Assembly: GCA_027487145.1 (NCBI GenBank)
Contig: JAIYEC010000070.1
Coordinates: forward strand, 4,477 to 68,476
DNA: 64,000 nt
Reading direction: 5' to 3'
Origin: a bacterium
GTDB taxonomy: Bacteria > Patescibacteriota > Minisyncoccia > Phycocordibacterales > UBA918
Shown: positions 5,296 through 62,456 of the stretch, piece by piece
Numbering within the stretch: position 1 is the first letter of the stretch
How the letters are laid out: every line of letters begins with the position of its first letter
Made by a program: the position numbers and the translations under genes
The notes under the pieces: model-generated
Seen by the model: only the letters and a program-made list of their open reading frames with translations
Databases searched by the model: none
Told to the model about the DNA's origin: nothing

Positions 5296-5515
5296 AGAAA
5301 GGAAAATGAATCTGTTATGGGAACAAATTGATTTTCCCTTCCACTTCAAGAACATAAAGAATGAACGCCTCCACTCCGAAAATAAAGATTGAAATACCTA
5401 TCTGAATAGCCCAAAATTGCCAGTCAGGATTACTCTTACTGAAGATATTTTTAAACTTATTTCTCACAAGAATCTCCTTCCGGCAAGAATTTAAACAAAT
5501 TTTATATTTAAAGTC

Positions 5516-5551
5516 AAAAAGGGCCGGCGCGATAGCGCCGGCTTTTCTTTT
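5516..5551. terminator. bidirectional hairpin terminator
   Basis: aaaaagggccggcgcgatagcgccggcttttctttt. Confidence 0.6.
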
Positions 5552-47895: not shown

Positions 47896-47970
47896 TGGCG
47901 GCTATAGTATAATGGTTAATGCATCGGTTTGTGGTACCGAGAATTCGGGTTCAATTCCCGGTAGCCGCCC
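47896..47970 (+). tRNA. tRNA-His (anticodon GTG), with encoded G-1 pairing to C73
   Basis: Folded manually. A 7-bp acceptor stem (gcggcta/tagccgc) with an extra G-1:C73 pair, D arm gtat/atgc with a GG loop, anticodon stem tcggt/accga with loop ttGTGgt, T arm tcggg-ttcaatt-cccgg, and a trailing CC. Confidence 0.85.
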
Positions 47971-48045
47971 CTTTTAGAGCTAGCACGAGAAGGCTACAAA
48001 AATGAACCTCAATTGGGGTTCATTTTTGTAGCCTCTGGTATGCAA

Positions 48046-48963
48046 TTAAACAAGATTTAGAATCTTCGCAACCAGATATTCTGTATCAGAAAAAAATTCA
48101 GATATTTTATTATTCTGGTCTTTATAACCATTTTGCGGGAAAAAACCAAAGTGAATTAACCTATTGCGAATTTTTTCTATCTTTTCTGCGTTTTCTTCTT
48201 CCTTACCATCAAGAAAGTATTCATTTCTGACAAATCTATATTTTTGCTCCACGCTCATTTTTGATATCTCTTTATTATTCATCAATAAAGAATGGTGTAG
48301 TGAAAAAATATGTTCCCAAATTGACCAAGATAGAATAAAAGCGGATTCTGTACACTGGCGTTTTTGCGCCTGAGCAAAAATTAAAAGAAATGCGCCTTTA
48401 CTATATTTCTTTTGCCATACCTCATCCTTAATAGTGGAACATACTTTATTTACCGCGATTTCTAGCCCCTGATCAAATCTGAGCCATTCAAATGCACTAA
48501 GCCCATTTATCTCGACCTCAGAAATGATTTCTCGTGTTTGATTATTTATAGCTTTTCCTACAGGTAGAACAAATCGACCAAAATTACCCCTATGTTGCCT
48601 TGGATCTTCAATAATCTGTATTCTACTTTCAGCGTCACGCCATGTCTTTGCAATAATATTTCGCCCAGTAAGGAGTGATAGAACTAGTAGTATATCTAAA
48701 AATTCTCTAGGTTTTTGGGAACCTACTTCTATACTATTCCACGGCAAAATTGCAACTTTTTGTCTTGAGGGCAACAACGCCAAGGCAGTCACCCGATGAC
48801 TGCCTTGATTGACCTCAAATGAAGTGCTGTTGTACGAGTGCGACAATTCTTTTAATATTTTTTTGTAATCAGGAGCCTGCTTAAAACAATACTCACCTAC
48901 ATTCAGCTCTAAAACATTATCTGGAAACTCAAGGTTGTATATTTCAATCTGAACCCTATCCAT
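48046..48963 (-). CDS. hypothetical protein (island cargo, 305 aa)
   Basis: AT-rich ORF with no recognisable motif. It is the last gene of a three-gene operon. Confidence 0.5.
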   Translation of the reverse strand: MDRVQIEIYNLEFPDNVLELNVGEYCFKQAPDYKKILKELSHSYNSTSFEVNQGSHRVTALALLPSRQKVAILPWNSIEVGSQKPREFLDILLVLSLLTGRNIIAKTWRDAESRIQIIEDPRQHRGNFGRFVLPVGKAINNQTREIISEVEINGLSAFEWLRFDQGLEIAVNKVCSTIKDEVWQKKYSKGAFLLIFAQAQKRQCTESAFILSWSIWEHIFSLHHSLLMNNKEISKMSVEQKYRFVRNEYFLDGKEEENAEKIEKIRNRLIHFGFFPQNGYKDQNNKISEFFSDTEYLVAKILNLV

Positions 48964-49282
48964 TTCCTAATTTTAAGTTGTGTATTGAGAAAAGTAAAAA
49001 TAACGCAGTAACAAAATCAATTATTATCCAAACATCACGAGTAAGGAATACAGGAATAAAAGGGTTAAACAATACTGCTATCACACCAAAGAGCCATACC
49101 CAACCCTCTTGCTTATCTTTGTACGCAAGGTAGGCAACGTATGTAGTCGAAGCAAATACAACGAAACGAAGAATTGTAAAAAATCCATATTGCCAACCAT
49201 CAATCAAAGCTAATAAAAGAAAAACTGATGCAATAAACAGTGCGGTATTTTTCTTTTTATTTTGACCAAAGACCATGTACAA
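48956..49282 (-). CDS. hypothetical small membrane protein (island cargo, 3 TM)
   Basis: 108 aa. It overlaps the downstream gene by 8 nt. Confidence 0.45.
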   Translation of the reverse strand: MYMVFGQNKKKNTALFIASVFLLLALIDGWQYGFFTILRFVVFASTTYVAYLAYKDKQEGWVWLFGVIAVLFNPFIPVFLTRDVWIIIDFVTALFLLFSIHNLKLGNG

Positions 49283-49288
49283 AATAAG

Positions 49289-50476
49289 TTAATTCTTTGG
49301 TGTCAGAAATCTGAAACTTACTCCAGCGGCTTTATAAACATGATCTAGACCTTCTGGTGTAAAGTCGCCTCCAAACAATCTCATTGAACCATCATTATCC
49401 ATACACACTTGCATAAACATAAAATTGTCTTCAATTTTATACATAAAATGCCAAGTACCGACAAGTTTATTCCTATGTTCTTTTAAGAACACTAATATTT
49501 GCGACTGAGTGAAACAGAGATTGTTTAAATCTTTATCTATAGATTTAAACATCTTGTATATCGTTGAATCATTAATAAGATAATGTACTTGTGCTTCAGC
49601 AATGTTTGTGTTTTTTGAAACAAAGTCTGATTTATTTATATCTTCTTCTTCAAAAAAGATAATTTTAAAACTTTCTTTTGAGTTTGCAATATTTATTTTT
49701 CCGTCTGTAGGTGGTATTTGAAAAACAGTATCTGTTTTTATAAGTACATTATTGGGTATATTTTTGATGTCATTGTCTTTTTCCCAAATGATTTTTGATT
49801 CAGTAGAAATATCAGAACTATTAAGTTCTTTAATTTTATACTCTTCATCTTCTTGTTTGCCATAACTTTTTTGAACCTCCTTTGAAATTTTTTCAAAATC
49901 AACATCTTCCTCAATATCTGGTAGATATCCGAAATCGTATTCAATTTTTTCATCTGAACAATCCTGGGAGCCTGTGCCTGCAAGATAATCTTCTTTTGAA
50001 ATTTCTTTAGAGCCGAATAGCTTCTCAAATTTCTCTCGGATAAGAATACCTCCTGTTGGATCTGATTTTCCTATCGACTCTATTTTGGCAATATACTTTT
50101 CATAGCTTGGATAACCATTAAATAGCCAAAAACCAAGTTCTTGAATATTTTGAACCATGTCTGGTGCATTCTGATTAGCTAAATCAATATATAAGTAATA
50201 TGCAGCCTTAATGTATTTTTTAGGGTATGGCAATAATGACATTGGTACTAATGTCATTAATGGATGTAGGGGTAGATGCTCGTTAAATAATTTCAACTGG
50301 AATGAATTAAAATCTTTAAACACCTTCTCTGCGAGGGCATAGTTTGGTTCTTTATATTCTGGGACTGATTCTTTAATCAGATTATAAGCTTTTATTAAAT
50401 CTGAATTATCATACTGATTCACTACCTCCCTATGTGAAATTTTATTTTTAAATAAGCCAAACATATTTTTTATCAT
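49289..50476 (-). CDS. hypothetical protein (island cargo, 395 aa)
   Basis: Very AT-rich with no recognisable motif. It is the first gene of the operon. Confidence 0.5.
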   Translation of the reverse strand: MIKNMFGLFKNKISHREVVNQYDNSDLIKAYNLIKESVPEYKEPNYALAEKVFKDFNSFQLKLFNEHLPLHPLMTLVPMSLLPYPKKYIKAAYYLYIDLANQNAPDMVQNIQELGFWLFNGYPSYEKYIAKIESIGKSDPTGGILIREKFEKLFGSKEISKEDYLAGTGSQDCSDEKIEYDFGYLPDIEEDVDFEKISKEVQKSYGKQEDEEYKIKELNSSDISTESKIIWEKDNDIKNIPNNVLIKTDTVFQIPPTDGKINIANSKESFKIIFFEEEDINKSDFVSKNTNIAEAQVHYLINDSTIYKMFKSIDKDLNNLCFTQSQILVFLKEHRNKLVGTWHFMYKIEDNFMFMQVCMDNDGSMRLFGGDFTPEGLDHVYKAAGVSFRFLTPKN

Positions 50477-50555
50477 AGTCTATTGTAGCCAACAATATCA
50501 CAAATCGTAATATCTGCCTTAAACTAGGCGTTGCCTTTACCAGGCTACTTCTAGA

Positions 50556-51908
50556 CTATCTTAAACTTACCTTTCTATCAGTCAGAACAATATGACTCTT
50601 TAAACACCTTATAAATTCACGCTTTTCCTCAACGCTTCCCTCTTGGAGAATAAACTTGGCATAGTTTCGAATATCTATATCCTTTACTACCGCTGAGTTC
50701 TTGTTTCCAAGTAACATATGCTCAAACTTCTTCACTCGCTTTAATTCTTCGGTAATCTTTTCTCTAAGAGGAACAATCTGCATATCTAAATCATCGACTA
50801 AGCTTTGCAGTTGTGGTATCAAGTCGTCTTCGTTAATGAGAGCATTGGGACAGAAGTGGTCTTTGATACGTGTACATTTGTAATAGACGTAGCGGTGGGT
50901 ATTGCCGTTTTTTTGGTGTTTAAATTTCTCATCAGCGGTAATACCCGAGCCACAAAGTCCACATGTCATGATTTTGGTAAAAGCGAACTCTTTTTGAGCG
51001 TACTTTGGTTCTAGAACCTGACTCTTAATCTTTTCTTGCACTAAATCAAATAATTCTTTCGTGATAATTGGTTGATGTGAGCCGTTGTACCAAACACCTG
51101 AACCTTTTGGAAATTCAAAACGACCGTAATAAAAATGGGCTTCTAGAATGCGGTAGATGTTACCAAGACTGAGATGCATATTATTTTCAGTCCTGAAGTT
51201 CACTTCTTCTTTTAACCACTAATGTAGCTTTCGACCACTCCAACCATCATACGCAACCTTCTCAAACATCTGTTTAATGATTGGTGCTCGTTCTGGGTCG
51301 ATTACTGATTCACACTTCTGATCCATTCGTTTGAACTTGGTGTAGCCAGTCAGTGGTCGGCACGGCCACAATCCCATCTCCACTCTTGCCCGCAGTCCTC
51401 GCTTCACGTTTTGACTCTTATTATCGTTTTCAAGTTTGGCTTGCGAACACAGAATCATGAGTAGGAACTTTTCGTTCGGAGAATTAGAGAACGTCTGTCC
51501 ATACGTTTGAATATGAACTAACTTCTTCTGGTCCATCAGGTCTACTAGCGAACCGAGGTCACCCGCATTACGACTTAGTCGGTCTGGTGCCCAGGCCATA
51601 ATTCCATCGTATGTACCGTTTCTAATCTCTTCTAGCAATTCTTTAAAGACAGGTCGCTGTCCTGAATCTTTAGCGGAATGAGCTTCACGTTTAATGGTGA
51701 CTATGTTTAGATTTTGCCGTTCAGCAATCGCCATCATTTCTTTGACCTGTGAATCAATCGATAGTGCTTGCATTTCATCAGACTCAGTACTCTTTCTGGC
51801 GTATAAGCAGTAGCGAATTCTCGCTCCACTAATTGATACACCGTCTTGTACTCTGCCCACAACATTAGTTTCCATCCTTAATTGATGACAGAACGAAAAA
51901 ACCTGCAT
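50556..51908 (-). pseudogene. large serine recombinase (resolvase catalytic domain, recombinase domain and zinc ribbon) interrupted by one in-frame TAG at 51219-51221
   Basis: The N-terminal part has YARKSTESDEMQALSIDSQ. The C-terminal part has the recombinase domain and a Cys4 ribbon. The two ORFs are in the same frame, separated only by TAG plus 5 codons (..GWSGRKLH*WLKEEVNFR..). Confidence 0.7.
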
Positions 51909-52153
51909 AGCTATGCAAGCTAGCGGAAACGTTACCTATTCGCTCGGTAAAAGGCTACTACTTTCAAAATAACTAATATTTATAGGCCTATAATGCTGTG
52001 CACGACGTGTGAATAGTCTTTACTTTCGCCTTTTATCGTGTTAACATTATTGTGGCTGGTTGCTCAGCAATGAGCTAGTCCACCTCTCGACGATGTGGAT
52101 ATCCGCGAGGAAACTGGCTTCAAAAACACCTCTCTTCGGAGGGGTCTTTTTGT

Positions 52154-53053
52154 TTATTGGATGGGACAATTTTGGTGAAAATTCCAATTTACCTTATTTA
52201 CGTCAGGAACACAGGTCAGACCACATCCACGGACATTTCCCTGAGCATTGGCATGAAAGTTACATCTGATTTTCTCAAAATAGTCGTAAGTCTCCATTTG
52301 CTTCTTACCATCAGCAGATACCCTGTCACCACACCATTCCCTTCCATACACGGTAAACTGTCTATGAATGTTGTAGGCACAAATATCCGCTATCTGGAGA
52401 AAATTTTCGTCGCATGACTTCTTAAAATCCACATCCACTATATTTTCATAGCTCTCAGAAAATTTAGTCTCCATACCAAGATTGTTGGTAAAGATACCCC
52501 GAATCTTGTTGTGGGCACCTTTTTCAAGAGAGAGTGAAGACTCAAACTGATCAAATGTGACCACGTTGATGTTGCCAGCATAATTTATCCGTTCCAACAT
52601 TATCTGTGTCGTCTTCAAAAAAGGATTTCCATCTCCGGTTGCTCGCTTCGCATCGCCGTAATACCTCTTGTCAAAAACAACACCAATTACCTTCATCTTG
52701 TCAGCATTCTGAGCAATAAGATCATGCAGATCGTCACCAAACTTATTAAGTTGCTCAACGGTAATACCGTAGGGGTCTAAGTAGTGTTTCTTCCTTTTGT
52801 CTGGTATACGCAACCAAGTCGACTTTATTTCCACATCCGCAGTACCGAAGCAAGCAATCTTTAACGTCCTAACTGCCGCGTCAATAATCCCAATATCTGA
52901 TTGTTTTATACGCACACCACAAAGTACGAAATAGTTTTCCCGCCAAAACTGCTCATTACCTTCAAATGCTGGTGGATTGTCTTTAAAATCCCTTGAGTAT
53001 GGGGCATTGTAGTCTTTCATTCCACTATCATCTACGAAGACTTTATAAAGCAT
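52154..53053 (-). CDS. DUF3800-like protein
   Basis: The N-terminal MLYKVFVDDSG resembles the Y-x-F-x-D-E-S-G start of DUF3800 proteins, which are often found on mobile elements. Confidence 0.4.
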   Translation of the reverse strand: MLYKVFVDDSGMKDYNAPYSRDFKDNPPAFEGNEQFWRENYFVLCGVRIKQSDIGIIDAAVRTLKIACFGTADVEIKSTWLRIPDKRKKHYLDPYGITVEQLNKFGDDLHDLIAQNADKMKVIGVVFDKRYYGDAKRATGDGNPFLKTTQIMLERINYAGNINVVTFDQFESSLSLEKGAHNKIRGIFTNNLGMETKFSESYENIVDVDFKKSCDENFLQIADICAYNIHRQFTVYGREWCGDRVSADGKKQMETYDYFEKIRCNFHANAQGNVRGCGLTCVPDVNKVNWNFHQNCPIQ

Positions 53054-53100
53054 TGGACTATTTTATCAGTTTGTGGTCTTAAGTAAAACAAACCCCTTCA

Positions 53101-53470
53101 GCCAACCAATCCAGGTACATCTCTTCAAATTGGTTCGACTGAGGGCATTACTGTACATTTTAGAGCTAGCCTGAGAGTGACATAAACCTTGTACGAGGTG
53201 AATATTATTAAAAGAGTGACAGTTCCTTGTCACTATGTGACACACGTGAATAAGTGTCACTTTTGTCACTTTTTGCCTATGCACGAGAAGGGTTCTTTTG
53301 AATAAAAATCACTAGCTAGAAAAGCCTTACAGGGTAACGAACCAAACAAGTCGTATCTGCTGAAGGCGCCCTGGAGCAAAGTCCCCCTTGGGGGACTTTT
53401 GCGTAAGGGCGGCCAAGCGAGTGAACTGCTTCACTGCGTCCGGGAATCGAAAGCCGCAGTCATGTTGCGG
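53101..53470. repeat. copy 1 of a conserved hairpin-rich non-coding element, split by a 220-nt insertion that carries the GTGACA array
   Basis: 53101-53148 matches 55611-55661, and 53369-53459 matches 55668-55761. The common core is ccctggagcaaagtccccc..gggggacttttgcgtaaggg, a second hairpin, then gtccg(g/a)gaatcgaaagccg. Confidence 0.55.
53174..53269. promoter_or_regulatory. array of five GTGACA/TGTCAC half-sites forming two inverted repeats plus extra half-sites, about 120-215 bp upstream of the DUF3800 gene
   Basis: gtgacagttccttgtcac and gtgacacacgtgaataagtgtcac, plus agagtgacat and ttttgtcac, read directly from the sequence. Confidence 0.4.
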
Positions 53471-53975
53471 AGCAACAGACGAGGCGGGGTCGAGAGTACT
53501 TAGTAAAATCAGAGCGAAGCGAATAATTCTACTTAGTAACTCGTGACCGATTCCTCCCGGTAGCCGCACTAACGAAAATTTATTTAAAGGGTCCCTATAT
53601 ATGTAGGGATTTTTTAGTTCCAGTCTGATATACTTTTTTTGTATGAGTATATATTTAAAGATGCTTCTTTTGATAGCATCCATATATATTTTTATAGGGA
53701 TAGTATTCGCAACAAAATGGGCAATTACTTATGACCCTGCAGTAAACTCATTTCCTAATAATCCAGTCTCATTTCTTTTTAATATAATATTTTGGTTTAA
53801 TGAATTTTAATTTCATCAAAGCTGGGAATATGTATACTCACATCACCTAACCTCTCAAACACAGTTCTAACATCCTTTACGACGTCGCCCATTTTAAGGA
53901 GCTTTATTTAACAACATATTTTAAAGGTATTTTTTAGTACCTACTGTCCCTAGTAGAACCTGCTATAATTTTACT

Positions 53976-54317
53976 ATGCTGATAGTAACATTCTCACATA
54001 TAGTTAATGCACTCGTAGCGGGAGGTATAGGTATATTACTCCTCCTGAATCTTCCTAGTATGACGGCAGTGTATGGAGAAGCAACTCCTGCCCGATCTAT
54101 CCTGACCAGTGTCTATCTTGCAATTGCAGCAGGAAGTTTATTTGCACTTATCTTTCCCTTACACAGTATCGCAATCGCAAAAGTGCTTTTTCCATTACAG
54201 ATACTATATAAATTTTCAACCATACTAACCGTGGGGACAATTACCCATCCCGTTGTATTAAGTAATCTATTTATTAGCGTATTACACGCCGTCTCTTTAT
54301 TTATGATTTTTAAGTAG
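53976..54317 (+). CDS. hypothetical membrane protein
   Basis: 113 aa with 3-4 hydrophobic helices. Confidence 0.4.
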   Translation: MLIVTFSHIVNALVAGGIGILLLLNLPSMTAVYGEATPARSILTSVYLAIAAGSLFALIFPLHSIAIAKVLFPLQILYKFSTILTVGTITHPVVLSNLFISVLHAVSLFMIFK

Positions 54318-54327
54318 AGCTTCGTTT

Positions 54328-54750
54328 CTACTTTAAGACACCTTTTATTCTTAAATTTCTTGCATACCAAAGCAATCCGGCCGCCACCGCCACTACAAAC
54401 GTAAGGATGATAACTTGTGGTGCACCAAGAGCGGCGAACACTCCTTCGGTTATATCACCTATATAAAGAATAATGTACGCTATGAGTGAAATTGCGAAAA
54501 CTGATATAGCAACGCGGGATTTTAAAGCTAACAACACACTCCCAATAATTCCTCCAAAGACACCAACAGCAAATGCAATGGTCATCCATACAGGGTAATT
54601 CAACATTACCATTGCCTGTTCGGCAGTTAGGCCTTGAGTCATTAGCGACGTTTCTGTTGCGTTTAGTGAAGCAAGAAACTGTACCACTCCAAAGATATTC
54701 CACGCCAACCCCAATCCAACGACTGACCAAAATACTGTTTTTGATTGCAT
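54328..54750 (-). CDS. hypothetical membrane protein
   Basis: 140 aa with 4 TM helices, downstream of the SRPBCC gene. Confidence 0.45.
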   Translation of the reverse strand: MQSKTVFWSVVGLGLAWNIFGVVQFLASLNATETSLMTQGLTAEQAMVMLNYPVWMTIAFAVGVFGGIIGSVLLALKSRVAISVFAISLIAYIILYIGDITEGVFAALGAPQVIILTFVVAVAAGLLWYARNLRIKGVLK

Positions 54751-54751
54751 A

Positions 54752-55177
54752 TTATTTATTAATTAATTGTGTAAGCTTAGCAAATGCTGATTCCCACCCC
54801 ATTGCATGCATTTCTCGCAAAAACGGCTGATTGAGATTCTCTTGTATCAAAGTTAATTCTGATCCAGCTTCAATCAGTCTTATAGTGACGATAATCCGAG
54901 ACGAGTCCATTGGCAAATCATGAATACGCCAGGTAAATACCAACGTATGTTCTGGTTCGACTTTCTCAAATACACCGGTTGTTGTATGTATCACTCCACT
55001 TGGCTCTATAACATCAATATCATATTCAGCCCCTTCAACGACTTCGTACTTCTTTAGATGTGCCTCACTCTCTCCTGGTCCAAACCATTTGATAAATTGA
55101 GTCGGGTCGGTCCACGCTTGCCACACTTCGCTTGGTGAGGCACTGAATGTTTTTATAATTGTAATAGTGTTTTCCAT
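54752..55177 (-). CDS. SRPBCC / AHSA1-domain protein
   Basis: The pattern of about 140 aa (..FSASPSEVWQAWTDPTQFIKWFGP..) is typical of the Aha1-like START/Bet v1 fold, which commonly pairs with ArsR regulators. Confidence 0.65.
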   Translation of the reverse strand: MENTITIIKTFSASPSEVWQAWTDPTQFIKWFGPGESEAHLKKYEVVEGAEYDIDVIEPSGVIHTTTGVFEKVEPEHTLVFTWRIHDLPMDSSRIIVTIRLIEAGSELTLIQENLNQPFLREMHAMGWESAFAKLTQLINK

Positions 55178-55186
55178 GATAAAAAT

Positions 55187-55543
55187 TTATTTTTTACTAA
55201 GTAGTTTATCCAGCGCATCAAAATTAGTATTCCAAAACTTGGTGTATTTTTGCACCCACGCCTGAAGTACTTTGAGTGAATGCGGTTCAAGACTCACAAT
55301 TACGTTGCGACTTTCTTTTCTCCGTTTAATTAACTTTGCCTCCTCGAGTACCCGCAAATGTTTAGATAGTGCTGGAGCAGACATCTGATAGTACGGTGAC
55401 AGTACCTCAACTGAAAGCGGACCACTACTTACTCGCTCTATAATCGAACGACGAGTTGGATCAGCTAGGGCTTTAAAAATTGCATCCATTGATGATTGAT
55501 TAACCATACGGTTAAATGTATCATGTAGATACTTAACCGTCAA
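55187..55543 (-). CDS. ArsR/SmtB-family transcriptional regulator
   Basis: Winged HTH LADPTRRSIIERVSSGPLSVEVLSPYYQMSAPALSKHLRVLEEAKLI. Confidence 0.8.
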   Translation of the reverse strand: MTVKYLHDTFNRMVNQSSMDAIFKALADPTRRSIIERVSSGPLSVEVLSPYYQMSAPALSKHLRVLEEAKLIKRRKESRNVIVSLEPHSLKVLQAWVQKYTKFWNTNFDALDKLLSKK

Positions 55544-55610
55544 GTTAAGTATGCTGATGTGACATATCCCTCCTATGTGAACATCTCAAGCAAAACAAAA
55601 CCCTTGCTTC

Positions 55611-55765
55611 ACTCAACCATTCAAGACACAGCTCTTCCAATTGGTTCCACCCGAGGGTTGGCAGCCGCCCTGGAGCAAAGTCCCCCTTTCGGGGGACTTT
55701 TGCGTAAGGGCGCCTAGGGAAGCAGACTGTTTTGCTTCCGTCCGAGAATCGAAAGCCGGAGCGAT
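55611..55765. repeat. copy 2 of the conserved hairpin-rich non-coding element (contiguous form)
   Basis: See copy 1. It lies between the stop of the 747-aa surface protein gene and the start of arsR. Confidence 0.55.
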
Positions 55766-55899
55766 ATTTATGAGCGAGCAGGTGAGAAATGGGATGGGAC
55801 CCGTTTCCCAAACTTTTTTCACTCTACGACCTCGCGTAAACGAAAAAACACCAGGCTATTTGTCCGGTGTTTTTACATTTCTTTATATAAGTATAGTGA

Positions 55900-58143
55900 C
55901 TACCACCACAATCCTGGCAAACCAGCGGCTTTCATCTGAGCCCGGGTAATTGCTCCGAAGTAACCAGAAGCTGGGACAATACCGTATTTTAGTTGGTATT
56001 CAATCAGCGCTTGTTCGGTGTAATTGATGAAATCACCAGTCGCAGTTACTCGAGCGAGTTCTCGGGCTTTTGGTCCAGTGTTATGATTAATCAATAACAC
56101 CTGCAAGGCTTGAACGTCTTCCCCGCTTAGGCCACGGTACAAATCACGAACAATCAGACCAGTCACATCCACCACCGGTTGAACCGCTTGATCAAGAATC
56201 GTAATCACCACAGCCGGTAGCTCGATTCCCGCCATACGCGCTGCTTCAAAGACAGCCCTGTTTTGATTAATAAATTCTCGGAGTGAAGCAGGTACTGTTA
56301 TATTCTGACTTATCTCAGTATCCGCTTTGCTATCTGTTGGATTAGTTGTTCGACGAGTACCTCCTCCGCCACTGCGTCGAGGCTCATCTTCATCGACAGA
56401 GGTAAAGTTCTGCCAACGGAAAAATGGATAGCCTCCATTTTCGCTTGGGTTAATACCCCAGATAGTAGTGAAGTTCCAGCCGGCACCAGTGTAGGTACTA
56501 CTCATTTTCATTCCTGGGGTTGCAATACCACTTCCAGCTCCAGAAGCGGATTGATTACTAGCTACACTATCCCAAAATGACGCAGTGATAGTATTTTCAT
56601 CTGACTCTCCAATCAGACCACCTACAAACGTATTTCCTGTCACTAAACCGCGCGCGTATACATTTATATATTGTGAATTTGATACTTGTCCACTAAAGCC
56701 ACCAACATAATTAGTTCCGGTTACCGTCCCTGCCGCGTAGCCATCAGTAATGGTCATGCCTCCGCTACTGCCAAGGAACCCTCCGACCTGGTCGCTACCT
56801 GTTACATCTCCAGTGGCAAACACTTGACTCATGGTCGAGCCAGGTCCTTCACAGCCATCATTACCAGTAAAACCTCCTGCACTGGCACCTGTTGCAGTCA
56901 CATCACCAGTTGCGTAAGCACGTACGATTTCTGCACCACACCCACTGCTCCCGAACATACCGCCGACAGATTCAGTACCTGTCACATCGCCGGTTGCAAA
57001 GCTATTCAAGACATAACCACTTGAAAACCGTCCAGCAAAGCCTCCAATTGAAAATTCCGTTCCACTCACATCACCAGTAGCTGAACTAGTTGCAACACTA
57101 GCATCACTAGCTGAGCCAATGAGTCCTCCGACTTCATTGAGACCCTCTATCACTCCGGAAGCAGCAGCGTAACTGACACTACTTTCAGTCAGACTCCCTA
57201 CCAACCCTGCGACTCTACGATTTCCGGTTACGTCACTGGTACTGGTAGCATACGAAACAGTGGCATTATTCTCGACGGTACCGGCAATTCCACCAATCCG
57301 ATCTCCACGCTTCCCGTTATCATTTGTGCCATCAATTTCACCGGTTGAAACAACTCGAGTCAAAGAACCCCGCTCCATTCGTCCTACGATACCACCAATA
57401 TCTTCACCTCCATCAATAAATGCTGTCGATGTTGCATAAGTAATGGTTGTATCAAGAGCACTTCCGACGACACCACCAATAATGATTCCGCTTCCTTTAA
57501 CAGCACCACCAACAACAACATTTGAAATTGTAGTTCCGTTAGTATAGCCAGCGACTCCTCCGCCATATTCCCCCCAACGGGTCCAGATACAAGCGGCTGG
57601 CTGACATACATCTGGGGTACTCATGACATCAATTCCAAGATATGTAACACCAACATTTACTTGAACATTTTCAATGATACCTCCTACTGCATATCCAACT
57701 AAACCACCAACATATCGATACCCCTTGATTGCTACATTGGTGAGACGGATATTCTCCAGTGTCGCGTCTTCTGTATACCCAAACAATCCAACATGCTGTT
57801 CGTCATCAACTCCTTCTCCTGGCAAATCGTCTGCTCGTTCAATAAATAAGTCTCGAATTTCAAAGTTCTGCCCATCAAGTGAACCAATAAATTTTGCTGT
57901 GCTGGTACCAACTGGAGTAAAGCCCTTTCCTCCGTTCCACAAAGTGGTAACACCACATTCGATATGATTCTCTAGTCGATAGTGGGCATCAAGATCATCA
58001 GCCATTTCTCGTAATCCATCACAATCTGTAATTTGGTATGGATCATTTATTGTTCCAGCCCCAGCTCCCGTAAACGCTTCAGCGGCAGTTCCATAAGTTG
58101 CAAAAATAAAAACACTGATTGCAACAAGTTTAGGTAAATTCAT
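55900..58143 (-). CDS. large secreted surface protein with Gly-rich (GLUG-like) repeats and a C-terminal putative peptidoglycan-binding domain
   Basis: Signal peptide, then many repeats of ..VGG[LFI][IAV]G.., and a C-terminal segment like PG_binding_1 (LSGEDVQALQVLLINHN..YTEQALIEYQLKYGI). Confidence 0.5.
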   Translation of the reverse strand: MNLPKLVAISVFIFATYGTAAEAFTGAGAGTINDPYQITDCDGLREMADDLDAHYRLENHIECGVTTLWNGGKGFTPVGTSTAKFIGSLDGQNFEIRDLFIERADDLPGEGVDDEQHVGLFGYTEDATLENIRLTNVAIKGYRYVGGLVGYAVGGIIENVQVNVGVTYLGIDVMSTPDVCQPAACIWTRWGEYGGGVAGYTNGTTISNVVVGGAVKGSGIIIGGVVGSALDTTITYATSTAFIDGGEDIGGIVGRMERGSLTRVVSTGEIDGTNDNGKRGDRIGGIAGTVENNATVSYATSTSDVTGNRRVAGLVGSLTESSVSYAAASGVIEGLNEVGGLIGSASDASVATSSATGDVSGTEFSIGGFAGRFSSGYVLNSFATGDVTGTESVGGMFGSSGCGAEIVRAYATGDVTATGASAGGFTGNDGCEGPGSTMSQVFATGDVTGSDQVGGFLGSSGGMTITDGYAAGTVTGTNYVGGFSGQVSNSQYINVYARGLVTGNTFVGGLIGESDENTITASFWDSVASNQSASGAGSGIATPGMKMSSTYTGAGWNFTTIWGINPSENGGYPFFRWQNFTSVDEDEPRRSGGGGTRRTTNPTDSKADTEISQNITVPASLREFINQNRAVFEAARMAGIELPAVVITILDQAVQPVVDVTGLIVRDLYRGLSGEDVQALQVLLINHNTGPKARELARVTATGDFINYTEQALIEYQLKYGIVPASGYFGAITRAQMKAAGLPGLWW

Positions 58144-58279
58144 AAAATGTATTAGTTATATGTAAACCTATTATAACAGTGGGTACCAACAGTATAGACG
58201 TTCCTGGGGACTTAAAACCATTTATTTTCTTTCATGAAAGCGCTATCTTCTACTCTCAGGGAGGAGTATACTCATATAT

Positions 58280-60760: not shown

Positions 60761-61198
60761 TTAGAGTAACGGTAAACTTTTTACTTTTTGTAAAACATCT
60801 TTTGAGTTTTGGTGACTTAAGAGTGTCAGAGCATCATCAAATGTACACCAGCGAATCTCTTTAATTTCGTGTGGTTGTGAAATATGAGTATCTGAGGATT
60901 TACACACCCCAACAAAATACTCGACTGTTTTCTCAATCCGTACTCCTTCGTGCGTGAACGAATAAGAGACAGCTATCGGAGTTTTGTCAATCAGTTCAAC
61001 TTCACTCACACCTGTTTCCTCCTGTAATTCACGCAAAGCTGCCTTAATTGGTGTCTCCCCTTTTTCAGCGTGACCTTTGGGAAAAATCCAAAAATCATCG
61101 CCTCGGTATGAGATCTGATGCACGACAAGCACCCGCCATGCGGTGCCATTATTATAAAGCGGAACGATACCATATGAGATATCTTGTTTGGTTTCCAT
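60761..61198 (-). CDS. NUDIX hydrolase
   Basis: Nudix box GHAEKGETPIKAALRELQEETGV. Confidence 0.8.
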   Translation of the reverse strand: METKQDISYGIVPLYNNGTAWRVLVVHQISYRGDDFWIFPKGHAEKGETPIKAALRELQEETGVSEVELIDKTPIAVSYSFTHEGVRIEKTVEYFVGVCKSSDTHISQPHEIKEIRWCTFDDALTLLSHQNSKDVLQKVKSLPLL

Positions 61199-61252
61199 AC
61201 AAGCAGTATACGATTTTAGAGACCAATACTCTATAGGTTGCTATACTATTAC

Positions 61253-62135
61253 TATGCGCAGTGAGCTATCAATAGAACCCCAAACATCGGGATTTGAGAC
61301 CTTGGGTCCCACTATCCTTAAAAATATTGAACGGTTTAGAAAAGCCACCGGCTGGGAACAATTTAAAGAGGAGTTAGAACGAGTAATGCGTGCTTATTAT
61401 GATGTCCTTGATAACTTCTCCGCAAGCAAACCTCCTCGCTCTCACACACTTGAAAAACAAGATTCAGAACCTGAATCCTTTGAACGGGCTCTTCAACAAT
61501 TTAAAGAGTTCTATGCTCCAAAAGAACTGATAAAGAGAATATTCGAACAATTTCCACAGCATGGCATCTACGAAAACCATGATGTAGTTGGTAATCGTGA
61601 AGAAGGGACAGGACATGGACATCGGTACATTTTAGAGCGGTTCATATCAGAAGCAGCCGAAGAAGCTGTTCGAATCTATTTTTTGGATCCTGAACATCAT
61701 GTAGGAGCAAAAAATTTCCTCCGACCAGCTATTTTGAATCTCATGGCAATGGAAGTAAATGAGGAGCTAAGTGAATTTGAATTACGGACATTGCGAGTAC
61801 GGACTGAAACAATCGATGAGTCAGTTCTCAGTAACTTTAGTAAATTAAAACATTTAGCAGAGCTTCTCTTAAAAAACAACGTAACTCCAGATCGGTTAGA
61901 AGCACTTGATATTGACCCAAGAGAAGTAATTTATTTTGCTTCAGCAGCATCAGAGGCGGTGTCAATTATGTCCAGATATGTCGGTGAGAATGGCATTAAG
62001 GCAATTCACAACAATGGATTACTGCCACGTTTTATACTTGGGAAAATTCTCTCTCACCAAGGTCTCTTAAGAAGAATTATTCAAAAAGCGGCGGCAGGTA
62101 AATATCGCTCGAAAGAATCCGGTGCTGATGAATAA
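61253..62135 (+). CDS. hypothetical protein
   Basis: The ORF has no motif. The start was chosen at MRSELSI because the 61188 start overlaps the NUDIX gene. The terminator hairpin at 62137-62172 (aaaaccgcacaatgtgcggttttt) follows. Confidence 0.4.
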
Positions 62136-62173
62136 AAAACAAAAACCGCACAATGTGCGGTTTTTGTTTTTAG

Positions 62174-62192
62174 TGTCCAGGACTGGAGTTGG
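62174..62192. repeat. 19-nt direct copy of the tRNA-Leu 3' end (gtgtccaggactggagttg)
   Basis: Identical to 62372-62390. It lies 180 bp from the tRNA 3' end. Confidence 0.7.
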
Positions 62193-62324
62193 TCACGAAT
62201 CACTAAGTAGATTTTTCGTCTTCGACTCCCAATCTCCTAAGTGTTCTCGACCCCGTCTCGCTAGCTCACAAGCTCACATCGCTCCGACTTTCAACTCCAG
62301 ACGAACGACGCGCAGGCGTCCTTC

Positions 62325-62377
62325 TTCCTGGACACAATTAAAAAAACCGGCATACGCCGGCTTTTTTAATTGTGTCC
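62325..62377. repeat. near-perfect inverted repeat with arms of about 25 bp (cctggacacaattaaaaaaaccggc..gccggcttttttaattgtgtccagg) whose right arm is the tRNA-Leu 3' end; it also works as a bidirectional terminator
   Basis: Read directly from the sequence, with one mismatch in the arms. Confidence 0.65.
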
Positions 62378-62456
62378 AGGACTGGAGTTGAACCAGCATG
62401 CCCGTGAAGGCGCTACCACCTCAAGGTAGTGCGTCTACCAATTTCGCCACCTGGAC
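62373..62456 (-). tRNA. tRNA-Leu (anticodon GAG), type II with a long variable arm
   Basis: Folded manually on the minus strand. Acceptor gtccagg/cctggac, D arm gcg-aaattggtaga-cgc, anticodon stem ctacc/ggtag with loop ttGAGgt, variable hairpin gcc..ggc, and T arm gctgg-ttcaact-ccagt. Confidence 0.75.

Follow-up and report, generated by a model that had tools for sequence, protein, structure and literature searches.

An apparently undescribed family of ORF-less, structured elements behind tRNA and tmRNA genes in CPR genomes

Cargo islands at the tRNA-His gene

The window (the whole stretch of DNA that was analysed, 64,000 nucleotides) contains two tRNA genes, the only matches to Rfam at gathering threshold over its whole length. 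The tRNA-His(gtg) gene lies on the plus strand at 47898–47971 and was found by both ARAGORN and the Rfam tRNA model (60.5 bits); the TTC of its T loop is at 47950–47952, and tRNA positions 57–74 are at 47953–47970. The tRNA-Leu(gag) gene lies on the minus strand at 62372–62456, with C56 at 62390 and positions 57–74 at 62389–62372. A gene for an inositol monophosphatase adjoins it; an exact-protein look-up of this enzyme returned no record.

The tRNA-His gene in this window is an integration hot spot. Cargo island 1 (47972–53371; Pfam and NCBIfam) encodes on its minus strand a 305-aa ORF, a DUF6804 protein, a 395-aa ORF, a large serine recombinase split into two ORFs (50556–51203 and 51219–51908) and a DUF3800 protein, and it ends in a tRNA-His-like octamer, AGGCGCCC (53364–53371). 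An imperfect repeat, ttttagagctagcNNgaga, is found in it at 47972–47990 and again at 53158–53176. A homologous island at another locus, L150, is 83% identical to 49806–53371, with the match ending exactly at 53371; its large serine recombinase is intact (440 aa). The right part of island 1 includes a block (D2-1, 53077–53157, plus strand) that resembles a decayed tRNA-His 3' half (..aattggttcgactgagggcattactgtaca) and that is also present in L150.

To the right of this, a displaced tRNA-His-3'-like end, ctctcaaacacagttctaacatcctttacgacgtcgccc (53852–53890, plus strand), forms the right end of an older insertion. It matches L150 (190–239) and L151 (1524–1607), and its motif also precedes elements in L083 and L150. 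Cargo island 2 (53891–55670; Pfam) has a 113-aa ORF on the plus strand and, on the minus strand, genes for a 140-aa membrane protein, an SRPBCC/AHSA1 protein and ArsR. At its right end is a second block, D2-2 (55584–55670), in which AGCCGCCC corresponds to tRNA-His positions 67–74. Two other loci, L148 and L149, are 86–87% identical to the window over 53974–55657, with a homologue of D2-2 included. In L148 the arsR-SRPBCC-membrane cassette and its D2-2 homologue are directly behind tRNA-His, the D2 block moving along with the cassette, and the hairpin element described below is absent altogether. The arsR cassette is ordinary island cargo, and the ends of the cargo islands differ from those of the hairpin elements. 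Comparison with L148, L150 and L083 suggests that the D2 blocks are decayed tRNA-His 3' halves. They were rejected as additional tRNA or pseudo-tRNA calls – ARAGORN was negative, and no Rfam tRNA model matched them at E ≤ 10.

Three copies of a hairpin-rich element

A first-pass annotation had described two diverged copies of a conserved, hairpin-rich, non-coding element around the arsR cassette. The repeat pair was recovered by blastn where it had been placed: 55663–55761 aligns with 53364–53459 (82% over 99 nt, E = 5e-21), and 55584–55650 aligns with 53077–53139 (76% over 67 nt, E = 5e-8). The two matched blocks adjoin in copy 2 and are about 220 nt apart in copy 1. Each annotated "copy" is two unrelated parts, a decayed tRNA-His 3' half and a hairpin-rich element; the first matched segment is D2-1, and the block nearest DUF3800 or arsR is a D2 block, a separate thing at the right end of a cargo island. 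Copy 1 extends about 100 nt to the right of its annotated end, to 53569. A third related copy is found at 62173–62371 on the minus strand, directly 3' of tRNA-Leu(gag).

Copy 1 begins with a 5' module (53372–53452, plus strand), delimited by sequence, fold, a terminator-like call and comparison with the family. It consists of a trailer and terminator-like hairpin (up to 53410), a segment antisense to the 3' strand of the acceptor stem (gggcggcc, 53407–53414), a small hairpin with a CTGC loop (53415–53439) and a segment antisense to the T stem and T loop (ccgggaatcgaa, 53440–53451). The conserved core (53453–53548, plus strand) contains the helices P1 and P2 and a long hairpin, P3, and has GTGACC at its end; covariance model R1 matches it with 90.4 bits (E = 2.5e-19). 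The core is followed by a direct repeat of tRNA-His positions 57–74 with two mismatches and a 2-nt insertion (gattcctcccggtagccgcac, 53549–53569, plus strand).

The 5' module of copy 2 (55671–55754, plus strand) has the same parts: a hairpin, an antisense acceptor segment (gggcgcct, 55708–55715), a small hairpin with a CTGT loop (55716–55741) and an antisense T arm (ccgagaatcgaa, 55742–55753). Its core (55755–55835, plus strand) is rearranged or truncated. The 5' strand of P1 is retained (gccggagcgat), a terminator-like module, gtgagaaatgggatgggacccgtttcccaaac, is in place of P3 (terminator-like call at 55795–55810), and R1 found no match in this copy, which lacks the conserved core seen at 53453–53548. 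By blastn, the replacing module is also present inside an element at L050, and a related module is found in L150.

Copy 3 is on the minus strand throughout. Its 5' module (62289–62371; fold z = -8.2) includes a perfect palindromic terminator hairpin, an antisense acceptor segment (tgtgtccagg, 62327–62336), a small hairpin with a CTGC loop (62301–62326) and an antisense T arm (ctggagttgaa, 62290–62300). The P1-P2-P3 core (62191–62288), with GTGACC at its end, scores 82 bits with R1 (E = 2.3e-17), and a perfect 18-nt direct repeat of tRNA-Leu positions 57–74 (aactccagtcctggacac, 62173–62190) and then a terminator follow it. The gene arrangement around copies 1 and 2, each 5' of a minus-strand gene, is not found at copy 3.

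Much of the earlier structural description holds. Both copies contain the long imperfect hairpin (53368–53410 and 55667–55712) and the second hairpin, the pairing of which is kept despite its differing sequence (53415–53439 and 55716–55741); the pattern that had been called covariation-like there is found in one among several helices that covary across the family. The stretch gtccg(g/a)gaatcgaaagccg is indeed conserved in both copies. In this stretch, earlier labelled single-stranded, the T stem and T loop of tRNA-His appear in antisense form (ccgggaatcgaa against ttcaattcccgg), and after this antisense T arm comes the 5' strand of a covarying helix.

Extent of the family and its association with tRNA genes

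The hairpin-rich parts of copies 1 and 2, together with copy 3, belong to one widespread ORF-less family behind tRNA and tmRNA genes. The family is apparently undescribed and large, with members of about 130–210 nt when counted from the end of the tRNA up to the final GTGACC; a full-text search of the literature found no description of such an element. It was recovered at more than 125 loci – 5 in a scan of genomes, all of them CPR MAGs, and at least 120 in a scan of metagenomes – so that the element is found far beyond this locus. With Rfam, no known RNA family was matched; a search with Rfam 15 at E ≤ 10 of 52900–56000, which includes the whole of copy 1, gave chance-level matches only, such as KRAS_3UTR and mir-2822. 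A phage origin was rejected, with no matches to either of two patterns in viral contigs.

The collected loci (792 kb) contain 161 copies by nhmmer. A same-strand tRNA ends 74–147 nt upstream of the P3 hairpin in 67 of 130 pattern-matched copies, and 31 anticodons are represented among those linked to a tRNA. Conversely, 93 of the 171 tRNA and tmRNA genes in these loci, including all six tmRNA genes, have an nhmmer copy within 300 nt downstream. L146 and L147 provided no usable tRNA context. The core is conserved over distant CPR lineages (Saccharibacteria, Parcubacteria, Paceibacteria).

No protein is associated with the family in the same way. In an all-vs-all comparison of 517 ORFs, no protein cluster was present in more than 9 loci, and those that recurred were housekeeping genes; the recurring neighbours reflect housekeeping synteny only, such as CCA-adding enzyme, MiaA, SmpB and ParB. 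Pfam analysis of 149 neighbouring proteins showed no enrichment of recombinases and none of integrases.

Architecture and covariation

On the tRNA-sense strand, the layout from the left is the tRNA 3' end, an A-rich trailer, usually a terminator-like hairpin, a segment designated X', usually a small CUGC-loop hairpin, the P1-P2-P3 core, GTGACC and the direct repeat. X' is antisense to the 3' end of the adjacent tRNA itself. There are two types. In type A, the direct repeat is tRNA positions 57–74 and X' spans the 3' strand of the acceptor stem, the T stem and the T loop; in type B, the direct repeat is N73-C74 only and X' spans the acceptor end and the trailer. The sequence of the left end is not conserved and its hairpin is variable. 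P3 is an irregular hairpin at the right end, unlike P1 and P2, and its conservation is partly built in because the family set was gathered with a pattern inside P3.

The helices are supported by covariation. Paired cells made up 97.9%, compared to 84.2% in shuffles and 29–39% with the partners slid, and the covariation score was 0.383 (0.119 in shuffles). Switches of pair type are frequent (GC/AU 38:36, CG/UA 42:32), with up to six pair types in P1. When P1 and P2 were re-tested without pre-selection for pairing, P1 formed in 58 of 70 copies (shuffled mean 21.5, maximum 33), and the R-Y pair of P2 was GC in 40, AT in 17 and GT in 3. One G·U pair is retained in 75 of 76 sequences, and G·U is commoner than A·C, which argues that the tRNA-sense strand carries the structure. 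These covarying helices support the proposal that the element is conserved and non-coding, with a function at the level of the nucleic acid. A small ORF in the core was rejected: the hairpins after a conserved ATG vary in length, not by multiples of three, and early stops occur (ATG TTT TCG AGC TAC TAG in L002). A promoter scan upstream of the core found nothing conserved.

Members of a single core lineage occur at different tRNAs and in both types; between L026 (tRNA-Phe, type A) and L036 (tRNA-Glu, type B), P3 is identical at 62 of 62 positions. Exchange of the conserved core by gene conversion between resident copies could give the same appearance of "retargeting".

Evidence for insertion

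Comparison of filled and empty alleles showed the copies to be insertions, present or absent between close relatives. Compared to L053, L109 has an additional variant element of 125 nt, flanked by a 21-nt repeat (GAATCCTACTGGGCGCACAAA). L151 has an identical tRNA-His gene with nothing inserted, and its similarity to the window stops at C74 (47970). The tRNA remains intact beside the element, and variant cores substitute for the standard core under the same flanking logic.

The order of events can be read from tandem and nested copies, in which the fresher repeat adjoins the tRNA (L015, L027, L109): new insertions were shown to land beside the tRNA, displacing older copies and cargo islands downstream, and this is how the arsR cassette came to be between two copies. 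The repeat begins right after the T-loop TTC (of GGTTC) in 27 of 30 type-A copies, while the left flank in type B is only GNNC-like. At sites where the right-hand repeat no longer agrees with the tRNA, X' mostly follows the tRNA: it pairs with the tRNA base at 17 positions, compared to 2 at which it pairs with the repeat. A tRNA-mimic minihelix of X' and the downstream repeat was rejected on these counts, which do not show compensatory change between the two.

Proposed mechanism and alternative explanations

The elements are probably a non-autonomous, ORF-less family that moves as a folded single strand, with X' as its guide. The mobile form would be either the tRNA-sense DNA strand or a read-through RNA that starts at the promoter of the tRNA. 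Such read-through would be limited by the terminator-like hairpin that separates tRNA and core. X' may act as an internal guide or splint across the left junction, which comprises the tRNA 3' end and the element's own 5' trailer, and the foot of P3 (GGUC/GACC) may pair with the right terminus of the element. With X' pairing on the left and the P3 foot on the right, both junctions would present "helix then C|" to a putative enzyme encoded elsewhere. By analogy, this geometry resembles that of HUH single-strand transposons (IS200/IS605, IS91) and of reverse-splicing introns.

A more far-reaching proposal is offered tentatively, as possible but doubtful: that this is a self-guided, programmable insertion system, made up of a catalytic or enzyme-recruiting fold of about 100 nt and an exchangeable antisense segment, with no element-encoded protein. 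The antisense segment would select the 3' end of any tRNA or tmRNA gene, and entry would be as RNA by reverse splicing or as ssDNA via an unrecognised nuclease or ligase. If true, it would be a mobile class outside insertion sequences, integrase islands, group I and II introns and CRISPR-associated transposons.

An unlikely alternative is a family of non-coding RNA genes, of the host or domesticated, that are transcribed together with tRNAs; the RNA might act, for example, on the 3' ends or trailers of pre-tRNAs. By pairing in cis with the 3' end and trailer of its tRNA, X' would control processing or free the core RNA, and the spread among tRNA loci would be secondary. This would account for the constant co-direction of element and tRNA, for the RNA-like structure (covariation, the conserved G·U pair, conserved non-canonical positions), for the trailer nucleotides in X', which are present only in the precursor transcript or in DNA, for the retention of the core across distant CPR lineages and for the absence of mobility genes nearby. 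It accounts less well for the distribution and decay of the copies. Only about half of tRNA genes have a copy, even in loci chosen for one, and presence or absence varies between close relatives; copies stack in tandem and decay, with P3 lost in copy 2, and the right-hand repeat decays as well. In most copies the core comes after a terminator-like hairpin, and variant cores replace the standard one with the flanking logic unchanged.

It is rather improbable that the copies are miniature integrative elements or att remnants, mobilised in trans as dsDNA by the tyrosine or large serine recombinases of islands, with the repeats as ordinary attL/attR identity blocks and the folded core incidental (arm-type sites, for example). 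Like classical tRNA/tmRNA att sites, the repeats do start in the T loop or at the discriminator and reach the 3' end, and the T-loop and 3'-end positions are reportedly classic integrase sublocations. Accretion beside the tRNA is typical of integrase hot spots, and islands with large serine recombinases are at the same tRNA-His. However, an excised circle of about 150–230 bp would presumably be very small for double-stranded site-specific recombination, and compensatory changes and a strand-specific G·U pair are unexpected in duplex protein-binding sites. One core is found at more than 30 tRNA species and at tmRNA, while an integrase normally has one target, and integrases are not enriched nearby.

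The first-pass suggestions of a cis-regulatory RNA for DUF3800 or arsR, or of terminal repeats of a composite element with the arsR-SRPBCC-membrane cassette, drew on the position of both copies 5' of a minus-strand gene and bracketing the cassette, but they are very improbable, since this position is incidental – the structured strand is plus, the family is tied to same-strand tRNA genes and its neighbours are otherwise unrelated, copy 3 has no such gene arrangement, the gene-proximal D2 segment is part of the cassette itself, L148 has the cassette behind tRNA-His with neither copy, and the entire 10-kb block is missing in L151.

Significance

If insertion as a folded, guided single strand is correct, the tiny genomes of CPR bacteria, which were thought to be repeat-poor, contain a compact structured element in hundreds of copies, and essentially every tRNA or tmRNA gene can have one behind it without being damaged. 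The element combines a conserved fold with an antisense segment matched to the target. Programmable DNA insertion guided by nucleic acids is designed on this principle, which is found here within about 130–210 nt and with no linked protein gene. An enzyme or ribozyme activity, if found, would be of mechanistic and possibly technological interest. The elements also account for "pseudo-tRNA" fragments and breaks in assemblies at the tRNA loci of CPR genomes, mark the order in which islands were acquired and are worth adding to RNA and repeat libraries.

Comparison with known systems

Integron attC sites were rejected by inspection: the junctions are ..TTC|RA.. and ..GACC|, and GTTRRRY is absent. 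Self-splicing introns share some features with the elements. As with the P1/internal guide of group I and the EBS-IBS pairings of group II, an internal segment would pair just upstream of the 5' boundary; like a P1 helix, this pairing would extend into the element, and the location in tRNA genes is also shared. Unlike these introns, the elements have no Rfam intron match (none to RF00028), a core of about 100 nt, no terminal G (they end in C) and no GUGYG...AY. The left junction is preceded by C74, in a pair with G and not a U·G pair, and since the element lies after the mature 3' end, splicing is not needed.

Guide-RNA elements (the IS110 bridge RNA, TnpB omega RNA and the homing crRNA by which V-K CRISPR-associated transposons target tRNA genes) likewise have a structured scaffold beside target-derived sequence, and the target changes while the scaffold is constant. 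In type A, the scaffold is followed on its 3' side by an 18-nt sense copy of the tRNA, and GGTTC before the target copy gives a geometry like the PAM or TAM of type V systems and TnpB. However, no DEDD recombinase, TnpB or Cas12k is nearby: no DEDD/Tnp recombinase cluster was found among the neighbouring proteins, and no large ORF adjoins the element. The sense "guide" decays after insertion. The scaffold lacks the two-loop architecture of the bridge RNA, its consensus being P1/P2 and one long hairpin, and the partner of the antisense segment would be the junction, not a pair of half-sites.

Integrative islands in tRNA and tmRNA genes and their CIME-like derivatives also insert into the gene with its 3' end restored, leave the displaced 3' fragment as a direct repeat and accrete serially at one tRNA; real islands coexist with the elements at tRNA-His in the window. 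The direct repeats of the elements match the part of the tRNA that lies between the T loop, or the discriminator, and the 3' end. The ORF-less elements contain no integrase gene, and no full-length relative sharing their ends was found. They differ from islands in their size (130–210 nt, with no gene encoded), in having one core for essentially all tRNA species, in a conserved part that is a covarying single-strand fold and in carrying an inverted copy of the target.

The remaining comparison is with HUH transposons. A Y1 HUH transposase (PF01797) was matched by tblastn at one locus only, L004, between tRNA-Leu and the element. It was rejected as an autonomous IS200-like parent – 20 loci collected via three homologues define a separate 720-nt insertion sequence with conserved ends of its own, whose insertions lie just 5' of terminator hairpins and lack the scaffold in every case (0 nhmmer matches). 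To our knowledge, no member of the IS200/IS605 or IS91 families has been described as specific for tRNA 3' ends. The elements differ from both in that no Y1 or Y2 transposase is associated here, the left and right hairpins appear dissimilar and the left-end sequence is not conserved, and the "guide" is 10–25 nt, not 4. They also carry or duplicate 2–21 nt of target and are flanked by repeats; if insertion is without target duplication, such repeats must be borne by the element. In other respects the geometry has a precedent in HUH systems (PMC13181058). As in the PATEs of IS200/IS605 and in IS91, activity and structure are assigned to one strand, terminal inverted repeats are absent, and the presumed right-hand cleavage site adjoins an imperfect subterminal hairpin, at the 5' foot of which is a four-base "guide" that can pair with GACC, the last four bases of the element. 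The putative target motif is 5' of the element on the active strand, here GTTC| in the T loop, and IS91 family target motifs are GTTC, CTTG or GTCC (PMC13181058). An internal segment would likewise pair with the left junction or the target, and the copies are small and gene-less.

The repeat and its association with tRNA genes

The two-copy repeat reported in the first-pass annotation is real and far beyond chance: 55663–55761 aligns with 53364–53459 at 82% identity over 99 nt (blastn, E 5e-21), and a second block, 55584–55650, matches 53077–53139 (76% over 67 nt, E 5e-8). Copy 2 is contiguous and copy 1 is interrupted by ca. 220 nt. The long imperfect hairpin was found in both copies, as was the second hairpin, whose sequence has changed and whose pairing has been kept. 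A search of Rfam, proposed with the original observation, was run and placed the repeat region in no known RNA family, with no match at gathering thresholds or at E<=10.

A blastn and nhmmer sweep of the window found a related minus-strand segment at ca. 62185–62345, directly 3' of the tRNA-Leu(gag) gene at 62372–62456. Read on the tRNA strand, this third copy (62173–62371) consists of a perfect palindromic terminator hairpin after tRNA-Leu; tgtgtccagg, the antisense of the acceptor 3' strand; a small hairpin; ctggagttgaa, the antisense of the T stem and T loop; a conserved stretch of ca. 100 nt with GTGACC at its end; and a perfect 18-nt repeat of tRNA-Leu positions 57–74, then a terminator. 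Copy 1 (hairpin part 53372–53569, plus strand) has the same layout but is built on the tRNA-His gene 5.5 kb upstream, at 47898–47971: ccgggaatcgaa in copy 1 reads as the T arm of tRNA-His in reverse complement, and its GTGACC (53543–53548) is followed by gattcctcccggtagccgcac, a slightly decayed version of tRNA-His positions 57–74. Because these segments match tRNA-His, the conserved stretch gtccg(g/a)gaatcgaaagccg, present as described, is a segment antisense to the target tRNA's own 3' end (X'), followed by the start of the core.

Structure of the core

An alignment of 76 cores (A3) gives a fold of three helices: P1, of 3 bp; P2, short and capped by a variable hairpin; and P3, a long irregular hairpin. 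On this structure 97.9% of cells are paired, compared to 84.2% in column shuffles and 29–39% when partners are slid, and the covariation score is 0.383 versus 0.119 in shuffles. Single pairs switch between GC and AU (38:36) or CG and UA (42:32), with up to six pair types in P1. The core start was first chosen by P1 pairing, and the test was repeated with a pairing-blind anchor: P1 formed in 58 of the 70 copies (shuffled mean 21.5, maximum 33), and the closing pair of P2 was GC in 40, AT in 17 and GT in 3. The family was gathered by a P3 pattern, so conservation of P3 sequence is partly built in; the covarying positions lie outside the pattern. One G.U pair is conserved in 75 of the 76 sequences and G.U exceeds A.C elsewhere, which argues that the fold belongs to the tRNA-sense strand. 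Several non-canonical features are conserved too (A.G and U.U mismatches, a bulged A, an AUG bulge and a GSA/GA internal loop), which points to a particular fold in three dimensions or to a surface recognised by protein.

Distribution and types of the element

The conserved-hairpin pattern matched five loci among species-representative genomes, all of them CPR MAGs (Parcubacteria/Paceibacteria and Saccharibacteria), and at least 120 loci in metagenomes; a pattern search of viral contigs gave no match. A same-strand tRNA, with 31 different anticodons represented, ends 74–147 nt upstream of the hairpin in 67 of 130 pattern matches, and many of the rest lie behind the 3' end of tmRNA (..CCATCTCCACCA) or run into the end of a contig. 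A core profile found 161 copies in 792 kb. Measured from the end of the tRNA to GTGACC, copies span 130–208 nt (median 180).

Two types were distinguished. In type A (30 of 67 copies), X' runs in the order acceptor 3' strand, usually a small hairpin (consensus AG-stem-CUGC-stem-CGU), then T stem and whole T loop, and the right flank is a repeat of tRNA positions 57 to C74, beginning right after TTC in 27 of the 30. In type B, the small hairpin comes first, X' covers the trailer and the last 7–9 nt of the tRNA, and the right flank repeats the discriminator and C74 only (AC for A73 tRNAs, GC for tRNA-Trp).

Tandem, 5'-truncated and nested copies also occur, at loci L065, L073, L088, L015 and L027. 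L065 (1350–1573), L073, L088 and L071 have head-to-tail arrays of ca. 100-nt 5'-truncated units, which begin inside X' or the small hairpin, each preceded by an N73-C74 dinucleotide; in L071 and L088, the element's terminal hexamer GTGACC is also found within the small hairpin. At L051 (2700–3260), tandem units of ca. 240 nt, each with either a complete P3 or a 3' fragment of it, lie downstream of a 2-kb block that sits behind tRNA-Glu and includes an XRE-type HTH gene; the motif AAAATAACGGACTTATCCCCATT is repeated there in three direct copies and one inverted.

Evidence for insertion

L053 and L109 are near-identical tRNA-Lys loci, but L109 contains an additional element of 125 nt, which follows the same logic around a variant core and has the 21-nt repeat GAATCCTACTGGGCGCACAAA at its bounds. 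This insertion has pushed away the former 3' end of the tRNA together with a type-B element already resident there. In the relative L151, the tRNA-His is identical, and its own terminator, a methyltransferase and SOUL come immediately after it; the match to the window breaks off at 47970 (C74) and picks up again at 58262. Among stacked copies, the fresher repeat is the one nearest the tRNA (L015). At sites of divergence between the right-hand repeat and the tRNA, X' is complementary to the tRNA version at 17 positions versus 2, so the right-hand repeat is a decaying relic. A tRNA-like minihelix of X' and the right-hand repeat was also considered and, on these same positions, is not maintained.

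The tRNA-His locus

Comparison with relatives showed that each of the two original copies is made of two parts. The left blocks (53077–53157 and 55584–55670) are decayed tRNA-His 3' halves, each situated at a cargo island's right end. In the related locus L148, the arsR-SRPBCC-membrane cassette is directly behind tRNA-His, 86% identical to window 53974–55657, with a homologue of the left block and without either hairpin element. L150 contains a homologue of island 1 (47972–53371), 83% identical over 49806–53371; the match breaks off precisely at AGGCGCCC (53371), and copy 1 follows from there in the window. L083 is arranged in this way too, with a cargo of 1 kb. The large serine recombinase is a single 440-aa gene in L150 (2695–4017) and is split into two ORFs in the window (50556–51908, minus strand; a 229-aa Resolvase and a 215-aa Recombinase with Zn ribbon); as it is intact in the homologous island, the window version is probably a pseudogene.

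The simplest order of insertion would be copy 2 by tRNA-His, then the arsR island (53891–55670), copy 1, and island 1, with each insertion occurring at the functional tRNA and displacing earlier ones downstream. The flanking of the cassette by two copies, seen in the first-pass annotation, does exist but is due only to this stacking. Copy 2 (hairpin part 55671–55835) has kept its 5' module, and its core is rearranged: a terminator-like module stands in place of P3, and L050 has this module as well and L150 a related one. This module, GTGAGA(R)ATGGG.TGGGACCC.TTTC.CAA.AC (window 55782–55813; minus strand of L050 989–1030 and L150 60–100), replaces or interrupts the P3 5' strand in some copies, and is to be read as a variant domain of the core or as a nested insertion.

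Several other sequences were observed at this locus. Of the methyltransferase region behind tRNA-His in the empty-site relative L151, 85 nt from the 3' end survive between copy 1 and the arsR cassette (53808–53892, L151 1524–1607). A motif, TTTTAGAGCTAGC(N)(N)GAGA or TTTTAGAG.., occurs four times after the 3' end of a tRNA, whether genuine or displaced (window 47972–47990 and 53158–53176, the right flank of L017, and L148 ca. 5505–5520); it could represent an ancestral trailer of tRNA-His or else the left terminus of a different type of element. A GTGACA/TGTCAC repeat cluster (..gtgtcacttttgtcac..) upstream of the DUF3800 gene (53177–53300) is also found at L043 2020–2050, L088 5657–5692 and L150 1300–1400. 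It looks like an operator or promoter array, has no match to the Rfam DUF3800-motif, and in L043 an identical 22-nt stretch adjoins a TTGACA box.

Proteins near the elements

No protein is consistently near the elements among neighbouring ORFs of the family loci. Three ORFs of 305–395 aa that adjoin elements or islands (61188–62135, plus; 48046–48963 and 49289–50476, minus) have no match in Pfam, NCBIfam or PHROG. The most frequent neighbour, at nine loci (L007, L030, L061, L068, L069, L081, L084, L089, L091), is a CCA-adding-enzyme-like gene (nucleotidyltransferase and HD), which looks like lineage synteny around tRNA-Arg and tRNA-Gly and not a functional link. The sole HUH transposase beside a copy, in L004, belongs to an independent IS200-like insertion sequence of ca. 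720 nt with conserved ends (L004 3710–4352, L126–L135). This sequence is common in CPR, its TnpA being 73–93% identical across hundreds of short contigs, and is repeatedly inserted just 5' of intrinsic-terminator hairpins, in L131, L134 and L135 directly after tRNA-Ser.

Mechanism and comparison with known systems

We infer the mechanism from the anatomy of the element. X' is complementary to the whole left junction, tRNA 3' end and element trailer alike; the four terminal bases, GACC, form pairs with GGUC in the foot of P3; and a C precedes both junctions, which on the left is C74 or C56 and on the right the last base of GACC. One core lineage is found with different tRNAs and in both types, with P3 identical at 62 of 62 positions between a Phe type-A and a Glu type-B copy. 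Since the fold is strand-specific, the active form would be a single strand. HUH single-strand transposons, whose cleavage sites are read by internal-guide pairing and whose subterminal hairpin abuts the cut, have the same geometry, as does a reverse-splicing intron with an internal guide. The IS91 family uses GTTC as target and moves as an ssDNA circle (PMC13181058). From this likeness, a non-autonomous, single-strand, self-guided insertion element is the favoured reading. That these are a mobile element family of that description is quite probable; the guided single-strand mechanism specifically is a tentative proposal.

A host RNA gene co-transcribed with tRNAs is improbable. A copy lies at most 300 nt downstream of 93 of the 171 tRNA or tmRNA genes of the family loci (six of six for tmRNA); the element is common, yet no obligatory part of a tRNA gene. 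Less probable still are duplex att-site mini-elements moved in trans by integrases. The elements do share their tRNA sublocations with integrase islands. The original suggestions of a cis-regulatory RNA or a composite transposon conflict with L148 and with the association of the whole family with tRNAs, and are very unlikely.

None of the defining features of the systems likened here (transposase, integrase, TnpB, DEDD enzyme, intron core, attC boxes, Rfam family) was found. A full-text literature search returned no description of such an element, though absence there is not proof of novelty, and there is a small but genuine chance of a new class of self-guided insertion system. We class the family as a tRNA-targeting non-autonomous mobile element, closest in its working to IS200/IS605-type PATEs, IS91-type elements and guide-bearing mobile RNAs.
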